From sequence record PP400777: a stretch of DNA of 64,000 nt. One strand, written 5' to 3'. A program made the translations under genes and the position numbers. Under the pieces are notes generated by a model. That model was not told the DNA's origin. It saw nothing but the letters and a program-made list of their open reading frames with translations, and made no database searches. This DNA is from Escherichia phage JM10. Shown one piece after another: positions 40,984 to 44,313 of this stretch (the stretch's first letter is position 1; the number at the start of each line of letters is the position of its first letter).

Positions 40984-41454
40984 TTAATCATGTTTCCACA
41001 CCCCATCAGTATTTGACCAAAGTCGCTGATTATCTGATCCTCGCCACAGCTTTTTAGTCGGAAGATTTTTCTCATACTTCCCATCAATAATAACATCAAC
41101 ATATTTAAGCATTTCTAGTTGTTTAATATCTTCAAACTTATATCCTGTCCACAACCAAATGCTTTTATTTGGATAAAGATTTTTAATAGTTTGAACCACA
41201 GAGTGAATCACATCTCTGTTATCAGGATAGAGAGGGTCACCTCCGGTTATAGTCAATCCTTCTATATAATCATTATTCAAACATTCAATTAATTGTTCTA
41301 GTGTTTCACCAGTGAATGGAATACCATTTCTAGCATTCCATGTTGATTTATTATAACACCCTTCGCATTTATGCAAACAACCTGTGACGAAAAGAACGAC
41401 CCTGCAACCAGGGCCATTCACAAAATCGCAAGGATAAAATCTATCATAATTCAT
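40984..41454 (-). CDS. nrdG: anaerobic ribonucleotide reductase activating protein NrdG (radical SAM)
   Basis: 156 aa; CDFVNGPGCRVVLFVTGCLHKCEGCYN. Confidence 0.9.
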   Translation of the reverse strand: MNYDRFYPCDFVNGPGCRVVLFVTGCLHKCEGCYNKSTWNARNGIPFTGETLEQLIECLNNDYIEGLTITGGDPLYPDNRDVIHSVVQTIKNLYPNKSIWLWTGYKFEDIKQLEMLKYVDVIIDGKYEKNLPTKKLWRGSDNQRLWSNTDGVWKHD

Positions 41455-42756
41455 TGGTGTTTAACCCTATGCATGATTTCTTTATTTTTACCAAGATTAA
41501 ATCCGCGTTCGTTCGGATTTCCCAAATAACCGCATGTTCTTCTTATGGTGTTCATCTTTTTAGGATCACTTTCTCCACAAACTGAACAAACAAATCCGTT
41601 TTCAGTAGGAGTCATTTCATGGGTACTTCCACATGTAAAACATTTATCTACTGGCATATTAACACCAAAATAATCTAAATGTTGTGCAGCATAATCCCAG
41701 ACAGCCTCAAGTCCCTTTAAATTGTTTTTCATATCTGGAAGTTCAACATAAGAAATGTGACCACCTGTCGCAATGAAATGATATGGCGCTTCACGAGAAA
41801 TCTTTTCAAACGGAGTAATATTTTCTTCTACTGAAACATGGAAACTGTTAGTGTACCAGCCTTTATCGGTGACATCCTTTACACTTCCATATTTTTCTGT
41901 ATCAAGTTTACAGAAGCGATAACAAAGGTTTTCAGCAGGAGTAGAATATAAACTAAAAGCAAATCCAGTTCTTTCAGACCACTGTTTAAGATGAGCATTC
42001 ATTTTAGTTAAAATTTCTTGTCCAATATCACGACCGACAAGAATATTCAATTCGTGAATACCGATGTATCCCAAAGACACTGAACTTCTACCGTTTTTAA
42101 ATAACTCAATTATGTCGTCATCAGGTTTAAGACGAACCCCGAATGCACCTTCTTGGTAAAGAATAGGAGCTACAGTTGCTTTAACACCCTTTAAAGAACT
42201 AATTCTACACATCAAGGCTTCAAAACACAGATCCATTCGTTCATTAAATAGCTCAACAAATTTCTGTTCATTGAACTGTGTTCCAATATAAGAATCTAAC
42301 GCAATACGAGGAAGATTCAATGTTACAACACCAAGATTATTACGTCCGTCAAGAATTTCATTTCCAGTTGAATCTTTCCATACACTCAAGAAACTACGAC
42401 AGCCCATTGGAGAAACTGGAACTGAAGAACCAGTAATAGCTTTATTATTCTTAGCTGAAATAATATCAGGATACATCCTTTTGCTTGCGCACTCTAAAGC
42501 AAGTTGCTTAATGTCGTAATTCGGATCGTCTTTATAAAGATTAACGCCTTCTTCAACGAACATAACAAGCTTAGGGAAAATAGGAGTTATCCCATCACGT
42601 CCAAGACCTTTAATACGATTTTTCAGAATTGCTTTCTGAATCATTCGTTCGGTCCAGTCAGTTCCCGTACCAAATGTAATTGTTACAAAAGGAGTCTGTC
42701 CGTTTGAACTGAAAAGTGTATTTACTTCATCATTATATTCAGCATGAGTCGCAAAT
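41451..42756 (-). CDS. nrdD: anaerobic ribonucleotide reductase NrdD, exon 2 (5' boundary approximate)
   Basis: C-terminal zinc ribbon CFTCGSTHE...CSVCG and glycyl-radical region; ends KNKEIMHRVKHQ; upstream exon separated by about 1 kb. Confidence 0.8.
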
Positions 42757-43527
42757 TCATGCCCGTTTATATGAAACAACAAAATTTGGATAGTCCATAG
42801 ATATGCAACGTTCTTTTATAGTGCTAGGATGAAAATTTAGCGCTTTAGCTGCTTCTATATAAGACGTATACTTAATACCGTCAACAACCACATATTCAGG
42901 AACTTTATGAATAGTAGTCTTAATACTCAAAACAAGAGGATGAGTTTCGACTTCACTTTCAGTGCAATTTAAATATTCCGCTGCTTTTTTAAAACTTCTA
43001 AAAGTTTTATTTTTAAGCTTTATCGATACTTGTTTTTTACTTTTTCGACTATTGATATTATTTTGCACATGTTCCTTAGATCTTCCGTTTTTAGCATAAT
43101 ATTCAGCTACAGAAGATTTTATATTGTTTTTATGAGATTCGGATAACACTTTACCCTTATGAGCATCTCTTAATTTTTGAATATGTTCTTCAGTATCCGG
43201 ATGCTTATAAAACTTTTTACCGCCTATGGATTTATTTAAACATTTTTTGCTATAAAAATATTTACGTATGACCTCTTCTTCATGTTTTAATGCATCTTTA
43301 TAACTATCAAATGTTTTTAAAATTATCCATTTAGTAGGTGTATCAGTTTTTAAGCGTTCATTTATATACTTAGATGACGTTGTGTAAGTTTTCCAGTTTG
43401 TGGGCTTGTTTTTAATTGTTCTAAATTTTTTATAACCGATATAAATGTCGCCATTAGAAAACTTAACTAAGTATGTAAATGCGTCTTTATCTTTTATTTT
43501 AGTACAACGTCTTTTTATCCATTTCAT
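42757..43527 (-). CDS. intron-encoded GIY-YIG homing endonuclease (I-TevII-like)
   Basis: 256 aa; DAFTYLVKFSNGDIYIGYKK (GIY-YIG); NUMOD3-like AHKGKVLSESHKNNI; inside the nrdD intron. Confidence 0.75.
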   Translation of the reverse strand: MKWIKRRCTKIKDKDAFTYLVKFSNGDIYIGYKKFRTIKNKPTNWKTYTTSSKYINERLKTDTPTKWIILKTFDSYKDALKHEEEVIRKYFYSKKCLNKSIGGKKFYKHPDTEEHIQKLRDAHKGKVLSESHKNNIKSSVAEYYAKNGRSKEHVQNNINSRKSKKQVSIKLKNKTFRSFKKAAEYLNCTESEVETHPLVLSIKTTIHKVPEYVVVDGIKYTSYIEAAKALNFHPSTIKERCISMDYPNFVVSYKRA

Positions 43528-43790
43528 TGTTTCACCTCGTATTCATAAGATAATCTTATTTATACAAGATGACTGCTGCATGTCGCCATGCAGATTAGAC
43601 TATATCTTCATCTTTCGATGCCGGCCGTTTCGAATAGCATTAGCTTCTATTCTACACCGCTACATTCATCACGGTTAGTCGTTAGGCATTTAGTTCAAAA
43701 GAACATTTAGCACGGGATTGTCTACTAGAGAGGTTCCCCGTTTAGACCGGTTTTACATGAGCCTGAATTAAATTAACTCATACGCCTGGA
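42757..43790 (-). mobile_element. group I self-splicing intron interrupting nrdD (boundaries approximate)
   Basis: NrdD reading frame broken between 42782 and 43768; intron RNA contains CUAAACGGGGAACCUCUCUAGUAGACAAUCCCGUGCUAAAU, recalled as T4 nrdD (sunY) intron core. Confidence 0.75.
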
Positions 43791-44313
43791 ATGCATCGTA
43801 TACATCTTTTTCTGTTTTAGATTGAGCATAATTCAACGCATCAGCGATTTGCCATTTTTCTGCATCCTCAATATGTTTTGCATAGGTGCGTTTAACATAA
43901 GGAGAAAGAACTTTATCTACATTCGCAAATGTAGTTCCGCCATACTGGTGTGAAGCAACTTGTGCGGTAATTTGTGCCATAATTGCAGTAGCAACACCAA
44001 TAGATTTAGGCGTTTCAATTTGAGCATTGCCTAATTTAAATCCATTCTCAAGCATCCCCTTTAAATCGACTAAACAGCAATTGGTAAACGGAAGAGCAGG
44101 AGAATAATCAATATCATGCATGTGAATGATTCCACTTTCATGCGCATTCATAATAAAAGACGGGACCATATTTTTGGCAATGTGCTTAGACACAATACCA
44201 GCCATAAGGTCCCGTTGAGTTGGAAAAACACGAGAATCTTTATTAGCATTCTCGTTTAAAAGATCTTTATTAGTTTTATGAATCAGTCCTTCAATTTCTT
44301 TTTCAATTTTCAT
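43768..44313 (-). CDS. nrdD: anaerobic ribonucleotide reductase NrdD, exon 1 (3' boundary approximate)
   Basis: 181-aa ORF ending inside the intron; exon 1 plus exon 2 total about 605 aa. Confidence 0.8.
   Translation of the reverse strand: MKIEKEIEGLIHKTNKDLLNENANKDSRVFPTQRDLMAGIVSKHIAKNMVPSFIMNAHESGIIHMHDIDYSPALPFTNCCLVDLKGMLENGFKLGNAQIETPKSIGVATAIMAQITAQVASHQYGGTTFANVDKVLSPYVKRTYAKHIEDAEKWQIADALNYAQSKTEKDVYDAFQAYELI

Follow-up and report, generated by a model that had tools for sequence, protein, structure and literature searches.

A group I intron with an I-TevII-like endonuclease gene at the T4 nrdD (sunY) site of Escherichia phage JM10

The interrupted nrdD gene

The window analyzed here is a 64,000-nt stretch of Escherichia phage JM10 (PP400777), a T4-like phage (Tequatrovirus), and its local gene order of 49, nrdD, nrdG and nrdH is that of T4. 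The reading frame of nrdD is broken by an insertion that harbors a further open reading frame (ORF); the insertion, this ORF and both NrdD parts all lie on the minus strand. The 1.3-kb intron region shares 98.7–99.5% identity with ~40 sequenced Tequatrovirus phages of Escherichia, Shigella, Salmonella and Proteus. The main features are as follows.

43776..44313, minus strand: nrdD exon 1 (538 nt; codons 1-179 and base 1 of codon 180)
44313..43768, minus strand: upstream NrdD ORF (181 aa; Pfam NRDD profile positions 1-141, 3e-40)
42731..43775, minus strand: group I intron (1045 nt; first base T43775, terminal G42731)
42757..43527, minus strand: I-TevII-like homing endonuclease gene, assigned by ORF and homology (256 aa)
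42782..41451, minus strand: downstream NrdD ORF (TTG-initiated, in the NrdD frame)
41451..42730, minus strand: nrdD exon 2 (1280 nt including the stop codon)

The upstream ORF terminates at a TAA codon (43770..43768) inside the intron, two codons past exon 1. The downstream ORF covers positions 145-562 of the Pfam NRDD profile in addition to the Gly_radical (glycine-radical) domain. Its extension up to 42782 is chance in-frame intron sequence, and its first 17 codons have no counterpart in intact NrdD. The original prediction had the NrdD frame stop at 43768 and resume near 42750; the upstream ORF does stop there, and the downstream frame is open from 42782, with exon 2 beginning at 42730. The 256-aa ORF that it placed in the gap was found at 43527..42757.

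Splice junctions

The ends of both exons (T43776 of exon 1 and A42730 of exon 2) were set by alignment with T4 and with phage VEc20, whose nrdD allele lacks the intron, giving the junction sequence GAGT/TAATT...ATAATG/ATGAAG, where slashes mark the splice sites. In VEc20 the exons align exactly, TATGA(G/A)T being followed directly by ATGAAGTAAATA, with the entire intron as a single gap. A 400-nt query of the predicted spliced junction matched a single place, with at least 80% coverage, in each of 620 phage records. Excision of 43775..42731 leaves a 1818-nt coding sequence for a 605-aa NrdD, which is colinear over residues 1–605 with the 605-residue T4 NrdD crystal chain (PDB 1H78) and gapless at the junction (AFQAYE-Y-EVNTLFSS). 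In the annotation of T4, nrdD is a join of two pieces that covers 2851 nt and has I-TevII inside; its intron is therefore 1033 nt long, and its exons have the same lengths, 538 and 1280 nt.

Both termini bear the marks of a group I intron. At the 5' splice site, ATGAGU of the exon (43781..43776) forms a helix with GCUCAU (43762..43757) whose last pair is U43776.G, the group I 5' splice-site signature, and the intron closes with a terminal G. This residue, G42731, is the first frame-compatible G that gives back the conserved NrdD sequence. For P10, TTCA of the P1 loop could pair with TGAA (exon 2, positions 2-5) over ~4 bp at most, and T4 does not keep this pairing.

The original prediction placed the intron at 42757-43790 and held that its junctions could not be set from sequence. 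Comparison with intronless alleles, which it had itself named as a check, does set them: nrdD is contiguous across the junction in ~620 records as well as in VEc20. Because three independent checks agree, namely the VEc20 alignment, the 620-record junction and the colinearity with 1H78, the span is corrected to 42731–43775, which extends 26 nt past the ORF stop at one end and falls 15 nt short of the earlier upper limit at the other.

Architecture of the ribozyme core

A covariance-model search for group I introns, the other computational check named with the original prediction, matched Rfam RF00028 (Intron_gpI) at 43811..43576 on the minus strand with a score of 70.9 bits, where the gathering score is 50 (E 1.3e-17), and covered the model in full, positions 1-253 of 253; this is far beyond chance. 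This match was obtained from a 1.5-kb slice (42500..44000) searched alone. Scans of the whole window against Rfam gave no match to the intron, either at gathering thresholds or at E 0.01 or better, which we attribute to the speed filters of Infernal, laxer for short inputs. Since the slice gives an E-value of 1.3e-17, the whole-window null is not taken against the intron; it does show that scans of this kind can silently miss a 70-bit group I intron. A match to the Vg1 ribozyme at 42668..42795 was dismissed as noise, its score being 20 bits where 90 is the cut-off (E 7.7). Motif searches of the window for further introns of the same family, using the invariant core strings GATATAGTCT and TAAATGCCNAACGACTA, each returned one full match only, that of the present intron.

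The first 200 nt of the intron, upstream of the ORF, form the catalytic core, which comprises the following elements.

43576..43775, minus strand: catalytic core, from the 3' strand of P1 to P9
43781..43776 / 43762..43757, minus strand: P1, with the U.G pair at the splice site
43750..43745 / 43626..43621, minus strand: P3
43741..43736 / 43717..43712, minus strand: P4
43731..43729 / 43723..43721, minus strand: P5
43711..43710 / 43687..43686, minus strand: P6
43704..43701 / 43696..43693, minus strand: P6a
43680..43676 / 43602..43598, minus strand: P7
43675..43672 / 43659..43656, minus strand: P7.1 (ACCG/CGGT)
43652..43647 / 43637..43632, minus strand: P7.2 (GAATAG/CTATTC)
43620..43617 / 43612..43609, minus strand: P8
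43593..43587 / 43582..43576, minus strand: P9

The minimum-free-energy fold recovers every nested helix, namely P1, P3-P6a, P7.1, P7.2, P8 and P9, and both helices of the P3/P7 pseudoknot are present in the core. The presence of P7.1 and P7.2 between P7 and the 3' strand of P3 assigns the intron to subgroup IA, the class likewise given to the T4 nrdD intron in the T4 annotation.

Comparison of the helices against those of the T4 nrdD intron revealed that 40 of 58 pairs are identical, 17 differ by compensatory changes and one by a one-sided change, while none is broken. The compensatory changes are spread over P3 (two), P4 (two), P6a (three), P7.1 (two), P7.2 (three), P8 (one) and P9.2 (four). 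The strands were assigned by hand in each sequence, so the count of compensatory pairs leans towards pairing, a point that counts against the intron; the helices were tabulated sequence by sequence because a MAFFT alignment sets several of the variable hairpins out of register. P3–P8 and P9.2 are also kept, each time with sequences of their own, in the td intron of Gelderlandvirus SEA1 and in the terL intron of Aeromonas phage 4L372D.

The 3' tail

The intron ends in a 47-nt tail composed of the P9.2 hairpin, then CUGAAUAUAAUG, then the 3' splice site.

42742..42762, minus strand: P9.2-type terminal hairpin (GCATGA/TCATGC, folded), just 5' of the 3' splice site

The stop codon of the endonuclease gene, TGA (42759..42757), forms part of the 5' strand of this hairpin. 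The P9.2 stem is kept as GTAGAG/CTCTAC in T4, TTGAG/CTCAA in SEA1 td and GAGAGG/CCTCTC in Aeromonas phage 4L372D. A terminator-like match on the plus strand at 42742..42762 is the P9.2 hairpin seen from the other strand, and no terminator. From P9 to the terminal G the distance is ~845 nt, with the ORF and its putative expression signals in between; the T4 sunY intron is unusual in having so long a separation.

The I-TevII-like endonuclease

The 256-aa protein aligns with T4 I-TevII over its full length with 144 of 257 residues identical (56%, E 1e-101), and it also matches PHROG 314, ‘homing endonuclease’ (3.6e-29). Membership in the I-TevII family is solid at this level of similarity. The domain models gave the following scores.

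PF19835 (SegE_GIY-YIG): 26.6 bits, cut-off 25, a narrow pass
NUMOD1: 25.3 bits, cut-off 22.8, above
PF01541 (GIY-YIG): 10.3 bits, cut-off 22.6, E 0.9, below

The failure of the generic PF01541 model counts against the proposed element, as does BLASTP of the ORF against I-TevI, which gave no significant match. A GIY-YIG motif can be read by eye at residues 17-32 (FTY...IYIGY). The GIY-YIG assignment of the present protein comes mainly from the established classification of the I-TevII family as GIY-YIG (PMC2988022). The original prediction of GIY-YIG and NUMOD3-like motifs finds some support for GIY-YIG, in the narrow pass of PF19835 and in the similarity to I-TevII; NUMOD3, with a cut-off of 20.4, is not reported by Pfam for the protein, which has NUMOD1 reported in its stead. 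A NUMOD3-like segment, PDTEEHIQKLRDAHKGK at residues 110-126, is recognized by eye only, and the aligned segment of T4 I-TevII scores 18.8 bits for NUMOD3, likewise under the cut-off. The predicted layout is a GIY-YIG family domain at the N-terminus followed by a NUMOD1/helix-turn-helix C-terminal part. No solved structure in the PDB was detectable by sequence for the 256-aa protein.

Putative expression signals of the endonuclease gene

The short spacer between P9 and the ORF carries the putative expression signals of the endonuclease.

43532..43572, minus strand: hairpin sequestering the ribosome-binding site (-17.3 kcal/mol, z -5.4)
43557..43564, minus strand: TATAAATA, an exact match to the T4 late-promoter consensus, in the 5' half of that hairpin

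The 3' arm of the hairpin covers the Shine-Dalgarno sequence GAGG (43538..43535) of the endonuclease gene, and the equivalent hairpin of T4 has a folding energy of -15.5 kcal/mol (z -5.4). An RNA beginning just downstream of TATAAATA folds with only -1.3 kcal/mol and leaves the ribosome-binding site free. As TATAAATA occurs six times in the window, which is not above chance, the argument for a late promoter here is one of position and homology alone. The annotation of phage SA20RB gives a late promoter at the same site, and an arrangement of late promoter and hairpin has been described for T4 I-TevII (PMC2988022). For T4 I-TevII an ‘operator’ resembling the homing site has also been suggested upstream of the ORF (PMC2988022). 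A search for its equivalent upstream of the window ORF gave a best ungapped match of 14/22, reached by 473 of 2000 shuffles, and this candidate was rejected.

A second allele at the T4 site

The intron shares with the T4 nrdD (sunY) intron its host gene, insertion site and exon lengths. They both have a compact P1-P9 core without a P2 extension, an ORF downstream of P9, P9.2 as the terminal hairpin and a 3' end of the form CUGAAxAxAxUG, in addition to the layout of late promoter and ribosome-binding-site hairpin and an endonuclease homologous over its full length. Despite sharing this architecture, they differ in sequence. The window intron is 12 nt longer (1045 versus 1033 nt), its core is ~72% identical to that of the T4-type nrdD intron, and its endonuclease, 56% identical, has 256 residues compared to 258 in T4. 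The stems of P3, P4, P6a, P7.1, P7.2, P8 and P9.2 have been rewritten in a compensatory manner; moreover, P7.2 exceeds its T4 nrdD counterpart by 7 nt, P8 has 2 bp fewer than in T4 nrdD, and the endonuclease stop codon falls within the P9.2 stem, whereas that of T4 lies in the P9.2 loop. By sequence comparison, the intron is an orthologue of the T4 intron at the same site and yet a distinct allele.

Used as a megablast query, the T4 intron returned 25 records, all at least 99.7% identical, and the window type is not among them. The window allele is present at full length in ~43 GenBank phage records, against ~25 for the T4 allele. At the protein level, a search of 50,697 phage records found the window-type endonuclease (at least 95% identity) in 44. 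A second class of ~56% identity is the T4 type, including a truncated copy in phage U5, and no intermediates between the two classes occur among the 50,697 records. Decayed forms of the window allele exist as well: phage 215Ecol030PP has a 479-nt intron from which most of the ORF is deleted, and phages F1 and FN carry a frameshifted ORF. Such a patchy presence, set against ~620 intronless relatives, is the pattern to be expected of a homing element that passes through cycles of gain and decay.

We found no description of the window allele in the literature that was searched. Most public genomes with this allele are mis-annotated, showing two nrdD genes and a ‘hypothetical protein’ or ‘homing endonuclease’, and the exact junction now makes a correct join annotation possible. 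The two discrete alleles at one site, of which the uncharacterized one is the commoner, offer a small natural system for studying endonuclease competition and the exchange of intron domains.

Proposed mechanism and alternative readings

Taken at a probability of about 93%, the locus holds a mobile subgroup IA group I intron in nrdD, at exactly the T4 nrdD (sunY) site, with an I-TevII-like endonuclease ORF. The central claim of the original prediction, a group I intron with a GIY-YIG-family endonuclease ORF that splits nrdD, is borne out by the Rfam match, the helices, the 605-aa NrdD restored by excision and the intronless alleles. The element is real and ordinary, of a kind already known, for the T-even nrdD intron with I-TevII is a classic system. 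Its mildly novel angles are limited to the uncharacterized second allele and an apparently mosaic ribozyme core.

We propose, by homology with T4, that the pre-mRNA would fold into the P1-P9 core at the intron's 5' end, and that an external guanosine would attack after U43776, the residue in the U.G pair of P1. The 3' splice site, ~845 nt past P9, would be brought in by the P9.2 hairpin and the terminal G42731, and ligation of the exons would give the mRNA for the 605-aa NrdD. During mixed infection, the 256-aa enzyme of the I-TevII family, encoded between P9 and P9.2, may cut intronless nrdD, and repair of the cut allele would copy the intron in. For I-TevII of T4, cleavage falls 13-15 nt downstream of the insertion site. 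Synthesis of the endonuclease would probably be delayed to late infection: in read-through transcripts the hairpin would bury the Shine-Dalgarno sequence, and transcripts from the putative late promoter at TATAAATA, lacking the 5' arm of the hairpin, would be translatable.

The same anatomy might instead belong to a decaying element that has lost the function of its ribozyme, its endonuclease or both and is kept through a dispensable nrdD or through residual splicing. In favor of this reading are the decayed copies of this very allele, from which 215Ecol030PP has lost the endonuclease gene and in which F1 and FN have it frameshifted, as well as the weak GIY-YIG signal of the ORF in generic models. 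The nrdD gene is dispensable in aerobic growth, so there may be little selective pressure to splice it efficiently, which also counts against a working intron. The window copy, however, retains all core helices, the U.G pair and the terminal G, scores well over the RF00028 threshold and has an intact 256-aa ORF that is 100% identical to that of many independent isolates; we consider decay an unlikely account of it.

Still less credible, and highly improbable in our judgment, is a truly split gene, in which the two NrdD parts would be translated separately into a two-piece enzyme and the insert would be a free-standing endonuclease gene only. Most public records, with two separate nrdD coding sequences beside a ‘homing endonuclease’, depict the locus in this way, and the TTG-initiated ORF in the NrdD frame, open from 42782, could serve for the second part. 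Against this stand the group I core placed exactly at the nrdD break, the stop of the upstream ORF two codons inside the intron and the 17 initial codons of the downstream ORF that are intron. Colinearity with T4 NrdD is regained only by the precise removal of 1045 nt, and the orthologous T4 insertion is an experimentally established intron (PMC2988022).

A possible mosaic core

The nrdD intron also shows resemblance to introns in other genes. Its core contains a stretch, unique in the window, that is identical to td introns.

43705..43746, minus strand: 42-nt td-identical stretch (end of P3, P4, P5 and start of P6)

This stretch is 100% identical to the td intron of RB3 (AY262153), to many Tequatrovirus td introns and to that of Gelderlandvirus SEA1. 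Identities by segment differ among the relatives.

P1 and its loop: T4 nrdD 20/24, td 11/24, Aeromonas 4L372D terL 9/24
43746..43705: T4 nrdD 32/42, td 42/42, Aeromonas 4L372D terL 32/42
P7.1: T4 nrdD 15/20, td 6–7/20, Aeromonas 4L372D terL 19/20
P7.2: T4 nrdD 10/24, td 10–11/24, Aeromonas 4L372D terL 18/24

The td introns, both the T-even ones with I-TevI and the ORF-less one of SEA1, belong to the same intron family as the window intron. The segment from J6/7 to P7 agrees with T4 td at 17/17 positions and with SEA1 td at 16/17, and the latter has the P6a stem GTTC/GAAC in common with the window. They differ in the host gene and in P1; in addition, a P2 hairpin is present in the td intron, whose ORF is located in P6a. 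The large terminase intron of Aeromonas phage 4L372D is closer to the window than T4 nrdD is in P7.1 and P7.2, and it has in common with the window intron a P9.2 hairpin whose loop is of GCGA type, as well as the CUGAACAUAA 3' end. Compared to the window intron, it resides in another gene and another phage group, it has a longer P5 and a longer P9.1, and the annotation of the interval lists no endonuclease gene.

On its simplest reading, the 42-nt identity with td suggests that related introns have recombined; alternatively, P4–P6 may have been retained from an ancestor. A broader proposal, which we hold tentatively and at slightly less than even odds, is that the intron is a natural mosaic: its exon-pairing end, 3' tail and endonuclease would be of nrdD type, P4-P6 would have been imported from a td-type intron, and P7.1 and P7.2 would resemble those of the Aeromonas terminase intron, while the endonuclease would perhaps recognize or cut the shared nrdD site differently. 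Such a mosaic would mean that domains had been shuffled in the wild between co-resident phage introns, and a different endonuclease specificity would make the two types competing alleles at one homing site. Domain shuffling between phage introns was reportedly described by Bryk and Belfort in 1990 in laboratory T4 crosses, and to our knowledge it has so far been shown in such crosses only.

The td-identical string may also explain why the original prediction took the core for that of the T4 nrdD intron: a core does lie upstream of the ORF, whereas its sequence is not that of T4, being only ~72% identical and having the 42-nt stretch of td.

Apparently mosaic core of the nrdD intron, and its relatives

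Within the core of the nrdD intron, one stretch of 42 nt (43705..43746, minus strand) is 100% identical to the td introns of T-even phages and Gelderlandvirus, whereas the T4 nrdD intron carries 10 differences from the window intron within the same stretch. Helices P7.1 and P7.2 of the catalytic core (43632..43675) are nearest to those of an Aeromonas phage terminase-gene intron. Together, the td-like stretch and the Aeromonas-like P7.1 and P7.2 suggest that domains have been exchanged between introns.

Related group I cores were identified in three other phage genes, listed below with the coordinates of each locus.

Group I cores in other phage genes
L008 1498..2249, Vequintavirus SYGMH1: core in nrdD, at a position unlike that in the window, with a 169-aa endonuclease ORF
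L010 1461..1706, Gelderlandvirus SEA1: ORF-less intron in td, ~244 nt
L009 1490..1872, Aeromonas phage 4L372D: core in the large terminase gene

Allele distribution, decay and exon flanks

The window allele, which is distinct from the T4-type allele at the same nrdD site, also occurs in decayed forms. In phage 215Ecol030PP (L003 1201..1679), the intron is 479 nt long, an internal deletion having taken out the greater part of its endonuclease ORF, and in phages F1 and FN (database matches H138 and H139) the endonuclease ORF is frameshifted and annotated as two hypothetical proteins.

Comparison of the exon flanks (43776..43975 and 42531..42730, 400 nt in total) revealed that intronless alleles reach at most 96.3% identity to them, compared to 98.7-99.5% over intron plus flanks for the intron-bearing records. 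These identities are consistent with co-conversion, in which flanking exon sequence would have moved along with the intron.

Downstream, nrdG follows directly after nrdD and overlaps its stop codon:
40984..41454, minus strand, nrdG
Comparison with the T4 locus (L002 2907..3539) showed that the window lacks mobC here, the free-standing HNH endonuclease gene that separates nrdD from nrdG in both T4 and phage SA20RB.

Detection and annotation of the intron

Rfam cmscan of the whole 64-kb window did not find the group I intron in either the "gathering" or the "evalue" mode, whereas cmscan of a 1.5-kb slice gave a hit to it at 43576..43811 with 70.9 bits (E 1.3e-17). Because the slice scores what the whole-window search misses, a whole-window negative is unreliable for group I introns.

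Among the GenBank and RefSeq records that match 42600..43900 and have the window allele, almost all present nrdD as two separate CDSs; a join with "I-TevII" is used in T4-type records only. In SYGMH1, SEA1 and 4L372D (three of three), the annotation divides the interrupted gene into two separate CDSs instead of showing one spliced gene, the td halves of SEA1 being named as separate genes "td2" and "td1".
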